From Eledone cirrhosa (lineage: Eukaryota): DNA of 64,000 nucleotides. The stretch's first letter is position 1, and each line of letters starts with the position of its first letter. The notes beneath the pieces were generated by a model that saw nothing but the letters and a program-made list of their open reading frames with translations, did not search any database and was not told the origin of the DNA. The stretch covers positions 227,292,001 to 227,356,000 of the forward strand of contig OZ024740.1 of the NCBI GenBank assembly GCA_964016885.1, written 5' to 3'. Made by a program: the position numbers and the translations under genes. Below, piece by piece: positions 1-54,973 of this stretch.

Positions 1-785
1 ATCAGGTGATTGTCACGTTTTTTGAAGTTAGTGTTACAGATAGTTAGGTTATTTGCATCACAGAATTCCAGGATTCTGGAGCCTTCCTCATTTCTAGTAC
101 CAAACCCATAGCCTCCATGGATTTCGTCGTAGCCGTCACAATGTTGTCCAACGTGACCATTTAGGTCGCCTGCGATAATTATATAGTCACTGTCGGATAT
201 TTGGGAGGTAGTTAGCATCAGTGTCTCATAGAATCTGTCTTTTATAGTGCCGGGCAGTCCGGATTGGGGTGCGTACGCAGATATTACTGTCACCGTAGTT
301 CTATTGAGGACAAGTCGTATTTTAATTATTCTGTCGTTCACTCTATTTACGTCTATTATCTTATCTGCCCACTTTTCTGCTACCATGATTCCTACTCCAC
401 CCAGCCCATCGTCGTTTCCCACCCAGAAAAGCTTATAACAACGTTTTTTACCCTCAATGAACCTAGCAGACCCACCCCTCCACCTGGTCTCTTGAATACA
501 ACAAACATCGACCTCCTTACGTTCAAGCATTTCTACAACCTCGTTAGCGCGACCCTTTAGGGTGCCTACATTTATGGTACCAACTCTGAAGTTTTGGATT
601 GCGTTTGGGGGTTGGGGGCGGTGAGGGGCGGGGGGCGATGGTGTTATGTTAGCCGTCCGCGGTCGAAACAATGAGGAGTGCTCGCATTCTCGTCCAAGGG
701 GTGAATTTGTCTTTATCTTTGGCATTGTCGCTGAGCGTCCAGATTTTTCTCTCTCACCTCCACTCTCCAGGATTCCGCAGTCCAT
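1..785 (-). CDS. RTE-clade LINE ORF, N-terminal apurinic-type endonuclease (APE) domain; continues beyond window start
   Basis: Manual translation, open from ATG 785 (second ATG 725) to position 1: FRVGTINVGTL...DVCCIQETRW...GVGIMV...VISAYAPQ...IIAGDLNGHVG...RNEEGSRILEFC...ICNTNF. It is absent from the ORF track because there is no stop inside the window. Confidence 0.93.
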   Translation of the reverse strand, partial: MDCGILESGGEREKSGRSATMPKIKTNSPLGRECEHSSLFRPRTANITPSPPAPHRPQPPNAIQNFRVGTINVGTLKGRANEVVEMLERKEVDVCCIQETRWRGGSARFIEGKKRCYKLFWVGNDDGLGGVGIMVAEKWADKIIDVNRVNDRIIKIRLVLNRTTVTVISAYAPQSGLPGTIKDRFYETLMLTTSQISDSDYIIIAGDLNGHVGQHCDGYDEIHGGYGFGTRNEEGSRILEFCDANNLTICNTNFKKRDNHL

Positions 786-850
786 CCATCCATCATATAT
801 CGTATATCGAAAGGCAACCAGGCAAGCGATAGTATAGGCCTCTGGTTTCT

Positions 851-912
851 GATTGGTCCGCGTAATAATACTGGTGATACGTGGGGGCTGTTTTATGATT
901 GGTCCACGTAAT
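851..912 (-). promoter_or_regulatory. Duplicated ATTACG(C/T)GGACCAATC motif (CCAAT boxes) in the unique LINE leader
   Basis: GATTGGTCCGCGTAAT at 851 and GATTGGTCCACGTAAT at 897 on the + strand. Confidence 0.35.
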
Positions 913-944
913 AGCAATGGTGGTGTGTGGGGAGGGGTGTTGGG

Positions 945-3900
945 TAGCTAGCAAGAAGGTAATGATTGAGATTTGTCTATGCATTTAACAAGCGATTAAC
1001 AAAAATACAAAATTTGTTCAGTTAAATACGTCCAAAAACCTAAACGTATTTAGCACTTAATAGGAACAGAAAATGTAGTTTGTTTTAGCGATAGAATGGC
1101 TATTTGGACTTGAAATACGAAATGAGAGAGAGAGAGGAGAGAGAGATGAAGTCTGTACCTTATGTTTACATGATTTTCTTTCGGACAGCAGGCAAAGAAA
1201 TGAAATTTGGCGAAGTGAATTCCTATCATATATTTATAGGGAGAGAGAGAGAGAGAGAGAGAGTGCGAGGGTAGGGGGCCACATGATGGCTGTGGGTGTT
1301 AGGCGTTTGACCGCCCCGTGCCTTCGAAGAAGGAAGAAGGAAAGGGTTTTGCTTTTTTGGGGGTTTGAAAATACGTTAGGAATTAAGGTTTGAAAATAGC
1401 TAGCAAGAAGGTAATGATTGAGATTTGTCTATGCATTTAACAAGCGATTAACAAAAATACAAAATTTGTTCAGTTAAATACGTCCAAAAACCTAAACGTA
1501 TTTAGCACTTAATAGGAACAGAAAATGTAGTTTGTTTTAGCGATAGAATGGCTATTTGGACTTGAAATACGAAATGAGAGAGAGAGAGGAGAGAGAGATG
1601 AAGTCTGTACCTTATGTTTACATGATTTTCTTTCGGACAGCAGGCAAAGAAATGAAATTTGGCGAAGTGAATTCCTATCATATATTTATAGGGAGAGAGA
1701 GAGAGAGAGAGAGAGTGCGAGGGTAGGGGGCCACATGATGGCTGTGGGTGTTAGGCGTTTGACCGCCCCGTGCCTTCGAAGAAGGAAGAAGGAAAGGGTT
1801 TTGCTTTTTTGGGGGTTTGAAAATACGTTAGGAATTAAGGTTTGAAAATAGCTAGCAAGAAGGTAATGATTGAGATTTGTCTATGCATTTAACAAGCGAT
1901 TAACAAAAATACAAAATTTGTTCAGTTAAATACGTCCAAAAACCTAAACGTATTTAGCACTTAATAGGAACAGAAAATGTAGTTTGTTTTAGCGATAGAA
2001 TGGCTATTTGGACTTGAAATACGAAATGAGAGAGAGAGAGGAGAGAGAGATGAAGTCTGTACCTTATGTTTACATGATTTTCTTTCGGACAGCAGGCAAA
2101 GAAATGAAATTTGGCGAAGTGAATTCCTATCATATATTTATAGGGAGAGAGAGAGAGAGAGAGAGAGTGCGAGGGTAGGGGGCCACATGATGGCTGTGGG
2201 TGTTAGGCGTTTGACCGCCCCGTGCCTTCGAAGAAGGAAGAAGGAAAGGGTTTTGCTTTTTTGGGGGTTTGAAAATACGTTAGGAATTAAGGTTTGAAAA
2301 TAGCTAGCAAGAAGGTAATGATTGAGATTTGTCTATGCATTTAACAAGCGATTAACAAAAATACAAAATTTGTTCAGTTAAATACGTCCAAAAACCTAAA
2401 CGTATTTAGCACTTAATAGGAACAGAAAATGTAGTTTGTTTTAGCGATAGAATGGCTATTTGGACTTGAAATACGAAATGAGAGAGAGAGAGGAGAGAGA
2501 GATGAAGTCTGTACCTTATGTTTACATGATTTTCTTTCGGACAGCAGGCAAAGAAATGAAATTTGGCGAAGTGAATTCCTATCATATATTTATAGGGAGA
2601 GAGAGAGAGAGAGAGAGAGTGCGAGGGTAGGGGGCCACATGATGGCTGTGGGTGTTAGGCGTTTGACCGCCCCGTGCCTTCGAAGAAGGAAGAAGGAAAG
2701 GGTTTTGCTTTTTTGGGGGTTTGAAAATACGTTAGGAATTAAGGTTTGAAAATAGCTAGCAAGAAGGTAATGATTGAGATTTGTCTATGCATTTAACAAG
2801 CGATTAACAAAAATACAAAATTTGTTCAGTTAAATACGTCCAAAAACCTAAACGTATTTAGCACTTAATAGGAACAGAAAATGTAGTTTGTTTTAGCGAT
2901 AGAATGGCTATTTGGACTTGAAATACGAAATGAGAGAGAGAGAGGAGAGAGAGATGAAGTCTGTACCTTATGTTTACATGATTTTCTTTCGGACAGCAGG
3001 CAAAGAAATGAAATTTGGCGAAGTGAATTCCTATCATATATTTATAGGGAGAGAGAGAGAGAGAGAGAGAGTGCGAGGGTAGGGGGCCACATGATGGCTG
3101 TGGGTGTTAGGCGTTTGACCGCCCCGTGCCTTCGAAGAAGGAAGAAGGAAAGGGTTTTGCTTTTTTGGGGGTTTGAAAATACGTTAGGAATTAAGGTTTG
3201 AAAATAGCTAGCAAGAAGGTAATGATTGAGATTTGTCTATGCATTTAACAAGCGATTAACAAAAATACAAAATTTGTTCAGTTAAATACGTCCAAAAACC
3301 TAAACGTATTTAGCACTTAATAGGAACAGAAAATGTAGTTTGTTTTAGCGATAGAATGGCTATTTGGACTTGAAATACGAAATGAGAGAGAGAGAGGAGA
3401 GAGAGATGAAGTCTGTACCTTATGTTTACATGATTTTCTTTCGGACAGCAGGCAAAGAAATGAAATTTGGCGAAGTGAATTCCTATCATATATTTATAGG
3501 GAGAGAGAGAGAGAGAGAGAGAGTGCGAGGGTAGGGGGCCACATGATGGCTGTGGGTGTTAGGCGTTTGACCGCCCCGTGCCTTCGAAGAAGGAAGAAGG
3601 AAAGGGTTTTGCTTTTTTGGGGGTTTGAAAATACGTTAGGAATTAAGGTTTGAAAATAGCTAGCAAGAAGGTAATGATTGAGATTTGTCTATGCATTTAA
3701 CAAGCGATTAACAAAAATACAAAATTTGTTCAGTTAAATACGTCCAAAAACCTAAACGTATTTAGCACTTAATAGGAACAGAAAATGTAGTTTGTTTTAG
3801 CGATAGAATGGCTATTTGGACTTGAAATACGAAATGAGAGAGAGAGAGGAGAGAGAGATGAAGTCTGTACCTTATGTTTACATGATTTTCTTTCGGACAG

Positions 3901-5737
3901 CAGGCAAAGAAATGAAATTTGGCGAAGTGAATTCCTATCATATATTTATAGGGAGAGAGAGAGAGAGAGAGAGAGTGCGAGGGTAGGGGGCCACATGATG
4001 GCTGTGGGTGTTAGGCGTTTGACCGCCCCGTGCCTTCGAAGAAGGAAGAAGGAAAGGGTTTTGCTTTTTTGGGGGTTTGAAAATACGTTAGGAATTAAGG
4101 TTTGAAAATAGCTAGCAAGAAGGTAATGATTGAGATTTGTCTATGCATTTAACAAGCGATTAACAAAAATACAAAATTTGTTCAGTTAAATACGTCCAAA
4201 AACCTAAACGTATTTAGCACTTAATAGGAACAGAAAATGTAGTTTGTTTTAGCGATAGAATGGCTATTTGGACTTGAAATACGAAATGAGAGAGAGAGAG
4301 GAGAGAGAGATGAAGTCTGTACCTTATGTTTACATGATTTTCTTTCGGACAGCAGGCAAAGAAATGAAATTTGGCGAAGTGAATTCCTATCATATTTATA
4401 GGGAGAGAGAGAGAGAGAGAGAGAGTGCGAGGGTAGGGGGCCACATGATGGCTGTGGGTGTTAGGCGTTTGACCGCCCCGTGCCTTCGAAGAAGGAAGAA
4501 GGAAAGGGTTTTGCTTTTTTGGGGGTTTGAAAATAGCTAGCAAGAAGGTAATGATTGAGATTTGTCTATGCATTTAACAAGCGATTAACAAAAATACAAA
4601 ATTTGTTCAGTTAAATACGTCCAAAAACCTAAACGTATTTAGCACTTAATAGGAACAGAAAATGTAGTTTGTTTTAGCGATAGAATGGCTATTTGGACTT
4701 GAAATACGAAATGAGAGAGAGAGAGGAGAGAGAGATGAAGTCTGTACCTTATGTTTACATGATTTTCTTTCGGACAGCAGGCAAAGAAATGAAATTTGGC
4801 GAAGTGAATTCCTATCATATATTTATAGGGAGAGAGAGAGAGAGAGAGAGAGTGCGAGGGTAGGGGGCCACATGATGGCTGTGGGTGTTAGGCGTTTGAC
4901 CGCCCCGTGCCTTCGAAGAAGGAAGAAGGAAGAAGGAAAGGGTTTTGCTTTTTTGGGGGTTTGAAAATACGTTAGGAATTAAGGTTTGAAAATAGCTAGC
5001 AAGAAGGTAATGATTGAGATTTGTCTATGCATTTAACAAGCGATTAACAAAAATACAAAATTTGTTCAGTTAAATACGTCCAAAAACCTAAACGTATTTA
5101 GCACTTAATAGGAACAGAAAATGTAGTTTGTTTTAGCGATAGAATGGCTATTTGGACTTGAAATACGAAATGAGAGAGAGAGAGGAGAGAGAGATGAAGT
5201 CTGTACCTTATGTTTACATGATTTTCTTTCGGACAGCAGGCAAAGAAATGAAATTTGGCGAAGTGAATTCCTATCATATATTTATAGGGAGAGAGAGAGA
5301 GAGAGAGAGAGTGCGAGGGTAGGGGGCCACATGATGGCTGTGGGTGTTAGGCGTTTGACCGCCCCGTGCCTTCGAAGAAGGAAGAAGGAAAGGGTTTTGC
5401 TTTTTTGGGGGTTTGAAAATACGTTAGGAATTAAGGTTTGAAAATAGCTAGCAAGAAGGTAATGATTGAGATTTGTCTATGCATTTAACAAGCGATTAAC
5501 AAAAATACAAAATTTGTTCAGTTAAATACGTCCAAAAACCTAAACGTATTTAGCACTTAATAGGAACAGAAAATGTAGTTTGTTTTAGCGATAGAATGGC
5601 TATTTGGACTTGAAATACGAAATGAGAGAGAGAGTGGAGAGAGAGATGAAGTCTGTACCTTATGTTTACATGATTTTCTTTCGGACAGCAGGCAAAGAAA
5701 TGAAATTTGGCGAAGTGAATTCCTATCATATATTTAT

Positions 5738-5771
<34 letters not shown>

Positions 5772-7068
5772 CGAGGGTAGGGGGCCACATGATGGCTGTG
5801 GGTGTTAGGCGTTTGACCGCCCCGTGCCTTCGAAGAAGGAAGAAGGAAAGGGTTTTGCTTTTTTGGGGGTTTGAAAATACGTTAGGAATTAAGGTTTGAA
5901 AATAGCTAGCAAGAAGGTAATGATTGAGATTTGTCTATGCATTTAACAAGCGATTAACAAAAATACAAAATTTGTTCAGTTAAATACGTCCAAAAACCTA
6001 AACGTATTTAGCACTTAATAGGAACAGAAAATGTAGTTTGTTTTAGCGATAGAATGGCTATTTGGACTTGAAATACGAAATGAGAGAGAGAGAGGAGAGA
6101 GAGATGAAGTCTGTACCTTATGTTTACATGATTTTCTTTCGGACAGCAGGCAAAGAAATGAAATTTGGCGAAGTGAATTCCTATCATATATTTATAGGGA
6201 GAGAGAGAGAGAGAGAGAGAGTGCGAGGGTAGGGGGCCACATGATGGCTGTGGGTGTTAGGCGTTTGACCGCCCCGTGCCTTCGAAGAAGGAAGAAGGAA
6301 AGGGTTTTGCTTTTTTGGGGGTTTGAAAATACGTTAGGAATTAAGGTTTGAAAATAGCTAGCAAGAAGGTAATGATTGAGATTTGTCTATGCATTTAACA
6401 AGCGATTAACAAAAATACAAAATTTGTTCAGTTAAATACGTCCAAAAACCTAAACGTATTTAGCACTTAATAGGAACAGAAAATGTAGTTTGTTTTAGCG
6501 ATAGAATGGCTATTTGGACTTGAAATACGAAATGAGAGAGAGAGAGGAGAGAGAGATGAAGTCTGTACCTTATGTTTACATGATTTTCTTTCGGACAGCA
6601 GGCAAAGAAATGAAATTTGGCGAAGTGAATTCCTATCATATATTTATAGGGAGAGAGAGAGAGAGAGAGAGAGAGTGCGAGGGTAGGGGGCCACATGATG
6701 GCTGTGGGTGTTAGGCGTTTGACCGCCCCGTGCCTTCGAAGAAGGAAGAAGGAAAGGGTTTTGCTTTTTTGGGGGTTTGAAAATACGTTAGGAATTAAGG
6801 TTTGAAAATAGCTAGCAAGAAGGTAATGATTGAGATTTGTCTATGCATTTAACAAGCGATTAACAAAAATACAAAATTTGTTCAGTTAAATACGTCCAAA
6901 AACCTAAACGTATTTAGCACTTAATAGGAACAGAAAATGTAGTTTGTTTTAGCGATAGAATGGCTATTTGGACTTGAAATACGAAATGAGAGAGAGAGAG
7001 GAGAGAGAGATGAAGTCTGTACCTTATGTTTACATGATTTTCTTTCGGACAGCAGGCAAAGAAATGAA

Positions 7069-7072
<4 letters not shown>
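945..7072 (-). repeat. Tandem array of 452-bp monomers (13 full + 1 partial) abutting the LINE 5' region
   Basis: Unit starts (TAGCTAGCAAGAAGG) at 945, 1397, 1849, 2301, 2753, 3205, 3657, 4109, 4534, 4993, 5445, 5903, 6355, 6809. The last unit ends at 7072 against (TA)n. Confidence 0.98.
1208..1317 (-). promoter_or_regulatory. Candidate Pol II core promoter repeated in every monomer (first-unit coordinates)
   Basis: Minus-strand order: GGGGCGG GC box (1317-1311), CATGTG E-box, (CT)n/GAGA tract, TATAAATA (1238-1231), C/A initiator with +1 at 1208. Confidence 0.55.
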
Positions 7073-7104
<32 letters not shown>

Positions 7105-18788: not shown

Positions 18789-19073
18789 CATACTTGAATA
18801 TTGAGAATGAACCAGAGAGCAAAGTGGCAAGTATCGGAGAAGACACAAACTTTGTATGTATGCCAAATTCACTAGAACTAAAGAAGTTTGAAATTAAGTG
18901 GAAACACAATGATGTAATACTTAATTTGACAAACACTGAAAAATACAAAACAAATGAACTAAAAACAAACATAACGATAAAATCTGTTACGTTTCAAGAT
19001 GCAGGTGTTTATACCTGTATGGTAATACTGGACATGGACATGAAAATGTCAAAAGCAAATCTAACAGTAAAAG
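18789..19073 (+). CDS. Internal exon encoding one I-set immunoglobulin domain (IgSF cell-adhesion/receptor-type protein)
   Basis: Pyrimidine tract + ACAG acceptor (18788) and G|GTAAG donor (19074); 285 nt, phase 1-1. Ig motifs IGEDTNFVC, IKWKHN, ITIKSVTFQDAGVYTC, ANLTVK. Confidence 0.88.

Positions 19074-29677: not shown

Positions 29678-29681
<4 letters not shown>
27894..29681 (-). mobile_element. 5'-truncated RTE LINE (RT and C-terminal region), frameshifted
   Basis: QFGFVPGKST, AFVDLDKAFDRV, LLYADDLVL, FRYLG, AMLHGSETW, RGRGRPRKTW motifs; (GAT)n tail; 5' end abuts (TA)n. Confidence 0.95.
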
Positions 29682-40442: not shown

Positions 40443-41186
40443 AGTTGCATTTATCTTGCTTTATGTTCATACGAGTTATCACCAAGTCACAACCAGTGAC
40501 TTCAAGAGACAACAAGGTCCGCCATGTTCAAGAAAGAACATACATACACACACATGCATCTTTAGGTGTTTAGACTTGTGATGTACTTATATTGACAGAA
40601 TCTTCCTTAGTATATGGGCAGTTCCCATTAGTACTATCTTTTGTATTTCTCCTATACGCGGGTTTCCTGGGATTTGCGATAAGTAATCATTAGACCCCTT
40701 AGGTATCATTCCCAGAGCGCCTACAACCACTGGTATTGTTTTAGTTCTCAATTTCCACATTTTTCCAATTTCTATCTCCAGGTCCTTATACTTGCTCAAT
40801 TTTTCAAATGTTTTTATAGATACATTCTTGTCTATTGGAACAGATATATCAATTAGCAGGCATACCCTCCTTTGAAAGTCTTTCAATATTATATCAGGTC
40901 TGTTTGCATCTATTTTTCGGTCTGTTTGGATGCTAAAGTTCCACAAGATTGAGATGTGATCTTTTTCAAGTCTGGGAGGTGGTTGATGCTCCCACCAATT
41001 CTTTTGATGGGGCAGGTCAAAATGCTTACACATTATCCAATGTATGTATTGTGCAGCTCTATCATGCCTGTTTAGGTATTCGGTTGGAGCTATAGGACTG
41101 CACATTGAAATTATATGGTCAATGGTCTCTGGTTGTTTTTTGCATACACGGCATAATGGGCTGCACCCATTTTTTATTATGTTGGC
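40441..41186 (-). mobile_element. 5'-truncated restriction-like-endonuclease non-LTR retrotransposon (R4/Dong-like) in a TAA microsatellite
   Basis: Open frame 41186-40587: CRVC...ETIDHIISMC zinc knuckle, RHD, RPDIIL...LIDISVP, K...KYKDL, PVVVGALG. (TTA)n on both flanks. Confidence 0.9.
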
Positions 41187-52737: not shown

Positions 52738-53120
52738 CATCATCATCATCATCACAGTTTTCACATGCCAGGTTGGATGACTGTGTTCTGCTCATACAGA
52801 ACTCATTTTGGCTTGGCTTCTATGATTGGATGCCCTTCCTAATGCCAACCATATTTACAGTGTGTCCTGGGTGCTTTTTGTTGTGAGACCTACATGACCA
52901 CTTTATAGTGTGGAATGGGCACTTTTTATTGTGACACCTATACGGCCACTTTACAGTGTGGACTGGTCACTTTTATTGTGATACCTACATGACCACCTTA
53001 CAGTATGGACAGGGTGCTTTTTGTCATGGTACCTACATAACCACTTTACAGTGTGGATTGAATGCTTTTGGTTGTGTCACCTACATGACCATTTCACCGT
53101 GTGGACTGGGTGCTTTTCAA
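52738..53120 (-). mobile_element. SINE family B 3' part with about 5.5 internal 48-bp units
   Basis: TTACAGTGTG...ACCTACATGACCACT repeats from 52855. Confidence 0.8.
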
Positions 53121-54142: not shown

Positions 54143-54973
54143 GCCATGATAAAATGCACACAATATACCCTCTAAAGTGTTAATGTTGATGCCTTGATAA
54201 AATGCAACCAATACACTCTGTAAAGTGGTAGTGCTGGTGCTACTGTAAAAGCATCCAGTACACTGTGTAGTGCCGGTGCCATGATAAATCTACACAGTAC
54301 ACTCTATAAAGTGGTAGTGTTGGTGCCACAACAAAATACACCTAGTACACTCTATAATGTGGTAGTGTTGGTGCCACAACAAAATACACCTAGTACACTC
54401 TATAATGTGGTAGTGTTGGTGTCACAATAAAATACACCTCGTACACTCTATAAAGTGGTAGTGTTGGTGTCAATAAAATACACCTTGTACACTGTATAAA
54501 GTGGTAGTGTTGGTGTCACAATAAAATACACCTAGTACACTGTATAAAGTGGTAGTGTTGGTGTCACAATAAAATGCACCTAGTACACTCTATAAAGTGG
54601 TAGTGTTGGTGTCACAACAAAATACACCTCATACACTCTATAAAGTGGTAGTGTTGGTGTCAATAAAATACACCTTGTACAATGTATAAAGTGGTAGTGT
54701 TGGTGTCCCAATAAAATACACCTAGTACACTGTATAAAGTGGTAGTGTTGGTGTCACAACAAAATACACCTCATACACTCTATAAAGTGGTAGTGTTGGT
54801 GTCACAACAAAATACACCTCATACACTCTATAAAGTGGTAGCGTTGGTGTCAATAAAATACACCTTGTACACTGTATAAAGTGGTAGTGTTGGTGTCACA
54901 ATAAAATGTACACTGTATAAAGTGGTAGTGTTGGTGTCACAATAAAATGCACCTAGTACACTGTATAAAGTGG
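54143..54973 (+). repeat. 46-48-bp minisatellite (about 17-18 units) running into a SINE-type 3' end
   Basis: Unit GTAGTGTTGGTGTCACAATAAAATACACCTAGTACACTCTATAAAGTG, followed by GGGCATCCAACC...(GAT)n to about 55140. Confidence 0.93.

Follow-up and report, generated by a model that had tools for sequence, protein, structure and literature searches.

Element and array at the locus

The window, a stretch of 64,000 nt from the Eledone cirrhosa genome, holds at its left edge the 5' end of an RTE-type LINE that lies on the minus strand. The features of this end, in window coordinates, are as follows.

3..785, minus strand: 5' part of the LINE ORF with the APE endonuclease; first ATG at 785-783, second ATG at 725-723
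786..944, minus strand: unique tether that joins the array to the ORF, C-rich at its start and carrying CCAAT boxes at 902-898 and 856-852
945..7072, minus strand: tandem array of 13.6 monomers of 452 bp (TRF: period 452, 98% matches)
1201..1209, minus strand: predicted start region, CC directly before AAATTTCA, offsets -1 to +7, containing 9 of the 103 5' ends mapped in the family; the start itself is putative
1231..1238, minus strand: TATAAATA of the innermost monomer, first T at 1238, recurring in 13 of 13 whole units
preceding TATAAATA in the innermost monomer, minus strand: (CT)n tract, read from the sequence
1311..1316, minus strand: GC box GGGCGG of the innermost monomer, read from the sequence and not kept as such in the oldest subfamilies
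7072..7100, no strand assigned: (TA)n target microsatellite at the 5' junction; a TA run also abuts the 3' tail

The ORF runs leftward beyond the window to about position 227289555 of the contig and counts 1076 codons from the first ATG, within an open frame of 1130 codons from stop to stop, with no second long ORF on the same strand. Pfam identified APE, RVT_1 and PHD finger domains, the PHD finger sitting after the RT, and found neither RNase H nor a CCHC knuckle in the ORF at E values up to 0.05. Behind the ORF lie a 3' UTR of approximately 370 bp, a (GAT)n tail and a TA run. The RT, the 3' tail and the TA flank that an earlier note on this DNA had expected to the left of the window are all there, and the uninterrupted, CpG-rich APE ORF it described is likewise confirmed, the frame being open with a CpG observed/expected ratio of 0.86 versus 0.15-0.32 in two other stretches of the window. 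The intact element is 9.9 kb long. Its (GAT)n tail is present in this copy and at the 29 loci with the 3' end shown, and long target-site duplications were not evident across 14 junctions.

The RTE clade is defined as lacking both RNase H and a C-terminal CCHC knuckle. Further RTE features found here are an N-terminal APE and an RT within a single ORF, the absence of an ORF1, and a short 3' UTR that ends in a microsatellite. The element is an intact, very young RTE-type LINE, classed by architecture rather than by an RT tree; comparison of the RT with solved structures returned only L1, R2 and group II intron RTs, and no named RTE. Homologs outside the E. cirrhosa genome sit on short contigs.

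TRF agrees with the earlier description of 13.6 near-identical 452-bp units directly before the ORF, and the GC box, (CT)n tract and TATA-like box ascribed to them are present in the sequence. Nine of the 13 whole units (1-7, 10 and 12) share one sequence. The differences, which comprise a 27-bp deletion, a single substitution and small insertions, are found in units 8, 9, 11 and 13, so that the variant units are confined to the outer part and the inner seven are all alike. The outer end of the array at 7072 does correspond, as had been claimed, to position 1208 in unit 1, 30 nt downstream of the first T of the TATA-like box; it is uncertain by one base because the A at 7072 may equally belong to the (TA)n target. 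Two further RTE copies in the window, at 29681 and about 63180, had been put forward as parallels for this junction. They are indeed flanked by (TA)n, but both belong to other families, with 54-64% amino-acid identity, and are so heavily truncated at the 5' end that they begin near residues 478 and 790; their flanks therefore speak to target preference only and not to a start site.

Linkage of the array to the element

The 3.0-Gb genome was searched with monomer, tether and APE words. Thirty array loci were collected with monomer queries, and 29 of them adjoin a full body at 98.7-100% identity; the remaining one, an array of 38 units on contig C4, runs into an assembly gap. A 31-base tether word has 228 exact matches in the genome and a monomer word 817. 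The first 100 listed matches of the monomer word represent 23 loci, every one of which adjoins a tether (22 by the exact word). We fetched 77 further tether loci, which are all those listed on contigs C1 and C2, and 76 continue clearly into monomer, the other one by about 10 bases. Finally, among the first 30 loci listed for the APE word, all 17 copies of at least 94% identity that reach the tether edge carry monomer, and nine of the 30 have their end in the leader. The array constitutes the 5' end of the element itself. An independent satellite DNA is ruled out by the linkage at 29 of 30 and 23 of 23 loci, and the genome search with the monomer that the earlier note had proposed thus returned element-linked matches.

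Array size varies widely in the family, from less than one unit to at least 38. In the 82 tether-selected copies the median is about one unit and the mean 2.4, with 14 copies holding at least three units and five at least ten. The bodies form one ladder-like lineage, and among the 97 whose 3' end could be seen, 52 retain an open frame of at least 1075 codons. Exact word counts fall in the 5' direction, from 7894 and 2351 for words further 3' to 2057 for APE and 228 for the tether. The last drop was considered as a pile-up of 5' ends and rejected; among the first 30 APE-word loci it mostly reflects older subfamilies with variant tethers.

Distribution of 5' ends

The 5' ends of 103 copies were mapped, comprising 29 monomer-selected loci and 74 loci from the tether list. 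Left out were the gap-ending array, a further array that continued past the retrieved sequence, a segmental duplicate, a locus counted twice and one off-list locus; nine ends were placed by hand from junction sequence, with a correction to one offset. TA-rich 5' flanks were found at 73 of the 103 copies, and 29 of 82 copies are left without any TATA box.

Nine of the 103 ends fall at -1 to +8 of the predicted start versus 2.1 expected, an enrichment of about fourfold that lies some 30-37 nt downstream of the TATA-like box. Without the present copy the count is eight of 102 (P=0.001), and the excess persists when the null is conditioned on the first one to three bases (P about 0.002). A hazard test on the 82 tether-selected copies gave seven ends in this interval (P=0.0009), and the same test on the first 850 bp only gave five (P=0.007). 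Four ends sit at the predicted base or one before it, and the 29 nt just upstream hold two ends versus six expected. The other 94 ends are scattered outside the interval. In a scan across all 10-base windows the peak of nine ends has P=0.06, and A-rich spots come close to it, with eight ends at +206 to +215 and seven at +353 to +362. Because of this scatter, the scan value and the A-rich rival peaks, the common 5' end base expected in the earlier note is borne out only weakly: an enrichment at the start is found, but a single shared base is not. From L1, an extra G derived from the cap would be expected at such ends, and it is absent from all four of those at the predicted start. About seven of the nine ends in the interval are probably excess, and the present copy is probably full length. 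The RNA need not have contained all 13.6 of its units.

The same distribution bears on a reading in which the monomers do promote transcription, with dispersed or TATA-independent initiation, and in which the ends near +1 are A/T-rich joints with (TA)n. The placement of the second and third pile-ups at A-rich motifs, together with the scan value, would fit this account, as would the arrays of a sister family (below), which lack a clear TATA box and an end peak, and the several starts reported for mouse type G monomers in the accessible part of one study (PMC6454616). We nevertheless consider it unlikely, given that the excess survives conditioning on the first bases, that four ends are at the predicted base or the base preceding it, and that the position of the TATA-like box is held in eight of eight lineages.

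Conservation of the monomer

Across 62 innermost units, variable columns are rarer in the upstream part of the monomer (-215 to +12; 8 of 176) than downstream (36 of 233; P=3e-4), a split that was adopted after a narrower promoter-block test came out at P=0.10. Third codon positions are less variable (24 of 1077) than either half. Homologous units occur in older subfamilies with body identity as low as about 90%, two of which have the unit in exact tandem and others with a partial second copy. In the eight aligned representatives, monomer identity to this copy falls to 47-61%, and the TATA-like box is nonetheless aligned in all eight, in the same columns and after a pyrimidine tract. Because some older units hold other TATA-like words, it is the position of the box and not its mere presence that counts as TATA evidence. 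Directly behind the box, 17-20 nt are missing from the young lineage, a loss that would shift a start set by spacing to the present end cluster. From sequence comparison of this kind, a promoter function of the monomers appears likely.

One sequencing run was treated as RNA-like because it covers an Ig exon and does not cover unique intron stretches. Contigs from this run contain both monomer halves; they are unstranded, start-less and repeat-rich, and for that reason were not counted as evidence.

The design extends beyond this family. A sister family with 73% nucleotide identity has a tether whose start is homologous, as is the 5' end of the tether in the older subfamilies, and carries an unrelated monomer of 403 bp in arrays of up to about 16 units. 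Its tether word has 554 matches. At 41 sister loci, 38 have monomer beside the tether, two end at the tether edge and one has the tether word missing in the stretch. A canonical TATA box is absent from the 403-bp monomer, and no clear peak of 5' ends was seen across the 41 loci read. The array design is therefore not confined to one family; the TATA feature may be. Three candidate observations in the sister family were discarded: an apparent end peak at query positions 352-356 was spread to 342-354 by junction reading, an end group at '242' proved to be an internal rearrangement, and a supposed template-switch chimera (L115) is a plain insertion into a sister-family monomer.

Arrays copied along with the element

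Six fetched loci contain a unit from which the TATA box and start region are deleted, and in six of six it occupies the second position. The TATA-deleting junction has 14 matches genome-wide, at 11 loci, and one copy with the TATA-less second unit reaches into a third unit. Two other loci have the same polarity, the outer units being of the ancestral CC type and the inner ones of the derived AA type. Because the TATA-less second unit is common to 11 loci, arrays travel with the element, and it is shown that multi-unit arrays have been copied to new sites; the earlier proposal that monomers are carried with the insertion is upheld by this common junction. Since multi-unit structures are common to different loci, we infer that transcripts originate within the array or upstream of it and take inner units along.

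These structures weigh on the possibility that the array is a passive 5' UTR minisatellite, which hitchhikes and expands while transcription comes from the CCAAT tether or from host read-through. Such an array would behave like a VNTR, as the present ones do. The two CCAAT boxes of the tether are conserved across subfamilies, and of 20 APE-intact copies without the tether word, 11 have their 5' end within the tether or leader, seven of them at window positions 677-719. RNA started in the tether could not, however, carry upstream units, and two- to three-unit structures are common between loci. Together with the presence of monomer in 17 of 17 copies of at least 94% identity that reach the tether edge, and with the upstream half of the monomer being its conserved half, this makes a passive array very unlikely.

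Growth and homogenisation of arrays

Units within one array differ by 0-1.6 substitutions (six in the oldest), versus up to 57 between subfamilies. In 19 arrays the unit-to-unit rate of non-CpG changes is 0.30/kb versus 0.77/kb for private changes in the same bodies (P=5e-5). Changes that run through an entire array and are seen nowhere else amount to 0.87/kb (six events over 6.9 kb in 20 arrays), and the present copy has one such private change in 12 of 12 units scored. Low unit-to-unit divergence combined with array-wide private changes means that each long array traces to one unit, late, the founding having taken place in a parent outside the sample, or else upon insertion or later. These rates are to be read with care, as assembly polishing may make units look too alike and unsampled parents blur the timing.

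Some arrays contain duplicated blocks of two, three or eight units, and at one locus a 1.55-kb repeat includes non-element DNA; both point to events at the DNA level. The outer halves are more variable than the inner ones in 13 arrays versus four (P=0.049), a weak trend that would make inner units the younger ones. The earlier suggestion that array expansion replenishes the units is supported as re-expansion with homogenisation, both by the rates above and by the block duplications.

Units might instead be added during reverse transcription, by a jump of the enzyme from the 5' end of the RNA into a homologous monomer, on the same RNA or a different one, or by copying of a circle made by a ribozyme. 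In one array the unit type changes at a joint that is located 54-72 nt downstream of the predicted start and marked by a 19-bp duplication, and the unit of the present copy resembles a mosaic of sibling types that is fixed through the whole array; both would be expected of such lengthening. Multi-unit blocks and a repeat that takes in non-element DNA would not, and positions 560-1900 gave no match to the ribozyme classes in Rfam at E values up to 10. The 452 nt that follow the predicted start fold unremarkably (z=-0.83). We regard this route as highly improbable; it concerns the addition of units and is compatible with monomers as promoters. A ribozyme-bearing tandem element, either a retrozyme or a LINE 5' end of the HDV or twister type, was rejected on the same Rfam and folding results, as far as the ribozyme classes of Rfam go.

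Proposed mechanism

The reading we favor, and hold to be probable, is that a young RTE-type LINE carries a 5' array of monomers, each of which is probably an ordinary upstream TATA promoter. Pol II would start in one monomer and transcribe the inner monomers, the tether and the ORF, and reverse transcription of the RNA would then place a copy at a (TA)n site. This copy would be without the promoter that launched it, and usually without more through 5' truncation, and any inner monomer that is kept could launch the next round. Outer losses would be offset by tandem duplication, most likely at the DNA level through unequal exchange or slippage. Whether all of this amounts to a self-renewing conveyor of TATA promoters, in which outer units are spent with each jump, inner ones are re-amplified and the array is re-founded from one, we judge to be evenly balanced. 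If it does, the design has outlasted a body divergence of about 10% or more, during which the monomer became hard to recognize, and the sister family runs an unrelated monomer on a homologous tether.

Comparison with known systems

LINEs normally cannot keep conventional upstream promoters. In Drosophila HeT-A the upstream promoter is spent in each cycle and resupplied by the tandem neighbour. The HeT-A promoter is the 3' end of a whole upstream element at the telomere, in contrast to the dedicated 5' monomer of a dispersed element found here. In Dictyostelium, the A-module of TRE5-A occurs in tandem copies. It is likewise a 5' module on a non-LTR element, 200 bp long and active as a promoter according to the accessible part of its description (PMC3159450). 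TRE5-A differs in having two ORFs, tRNA-gene targeting and short modules, and is likened to the present family by that description and not by sequence.

The closest resemblance is to the mouse L1Md subfamilies A, Gf and Tf and to rat L1, which in the accessible parts of three reports have the same arrangement of tandem 5' monomers and a conserved tether (PMC6454616, PMC9022269, PMC5381506). As far as those parts go, monomer number is variable in both systems (mean 2.4 here, 2.7-3.1 in mouse L1), rare very long arrays occur in both (at least 38 units here, 50 in mouse L1), and different monomer types are found on related bodies in both. The 5' ends of mouse L1 cluster at a monomer position; the enrichment here is much weaker (9%). 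The body is different, with a single RTE-type ORF here versus an L1 body with ORF1 and ORF2. The monomers here are 430-560 bp long and have a TATA-like box; those of mouse L1 are described by CpG-island, YY1 and AP-1 signals in two mouse L1 promoter papers, and the word 'TATA' has no occurrence in the accessible text of either. Promoter activity has been measured in mouse L1, according to these sources, and is predicted here. By analogy, the array would work like the monomer-plus-tether promoter of mouse and rat L1, yet the element is not an L1.

Among octopus elements, RTE-2_OV of Octopus vulgaris is similar in being young and in having a single ORF, of 1109 aa versus 1076, with endonuclease, RT and zinc finger, as given in the accessible part of its description (PMC9115989). 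It differs in its 5' UTR of about 600 nt and its microsatellite-filled 3' UTR, and 'tandem' appears nowhere in the main text of that report (PMC9115989). The comparison is by description only, the sequence being noted as unavailable (PMC13282606). Neither of these octopus RTE papers mentions such an array in its accessible text (PMC9115989, PMC13282606). More broadly, a literature search by titles and the starts of abstracts found no 5' monomer array on an RTE element, Repbase and most subscription journals lying outside its scope. In the accessible part of one mouse study, monomer promoters are called special to mouse L1, and how they are replenished is described as unclear (PMC6454616).

The E. 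cirrhosa family would represent an independent origin of monomer promoters in the RTE clade, apparently built on a TATA box. With at least 228 tether-reaching copies, a single ladder-like tree and markers that date array growth, it is a good test bed for such promoters. It also shows how LINE 5' ends may seed satellite-like arrays, and the real promoter of active RTE elements may be missing from consensus libraries.

Further loci of the main family

C4:256171074-256187834 of the assembly (G000; loci L062, L063): array of at least 38 units, 17 kb
C1:142898207-142901899 of G000 (locus L082): repeated 5' end, period ~1.55 kb
C2 of G000, around 144.06-144.075 Mb (loci L115/L145): nested insertion, a 20-unit main-family element within a sister-family monomer

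The C4 array has its outer end at +7 relative to the predicted start; its inner end meets an assembly gap. At L082, the ~1.55-kb repeat unit takes in both the 5' end of the element and flanking non-element DNA, and is a duplication postdating insertion. On C2 the main-family element has inserted into the sister-family monomer.

The sister family

C1:159793124-159795457 of G000 (locus L083:2034-4351): 5' monomer array of a sister-family RTE, 403-bp monomer

By sequence comparison, this 403-bp monomer is unrelated to that of the main element. Exact-word counting found the sister-family tether word 554 times in the genome, and the 5' ends of the copies are scattered.

Leader ends and the ORF protein

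Among APE-intact main-family copies that lack the tether word (an exact 31-base word) and end in the tether or leader, 7 of 11 have 5' ends clustering at window 677-719, directly past the second ATG. Among the first 30 APE-word loci listed, five of nine leader ends fall at ~695-716, three of these being neighbouring loci and maybe duplicates. The 677-719 cluster may stem from a second start or from RT stopping there.

P0001 (ORF protein) residues 815-858: PHD finger (Pfam), directly C-terminal of the RT domain

Of the 120 homologs listed, 60 likewise have PF00628.

Surroundings of the element

18789-19073, plus strand: Ig I-set exon, AG/GT borders
40587-41186, minus strand: fragment, CCHC-like motif and the look of a restriction-like endonuclease
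52854-53117 and 54296-54973: 48-bp tandem arrays

The fragment at 40587-41186, probably of R4/Dong type, gave no match in a Pfam search. By eye, the 48-bp arrays resemble a short repeat of the RTE 3' UTR. At the Ig I-set exon, coverage by X4, a sequencing run that behaves like RNA, is confined to the exon. The RTE element likely lies within or close to this Ig I-set host gene.
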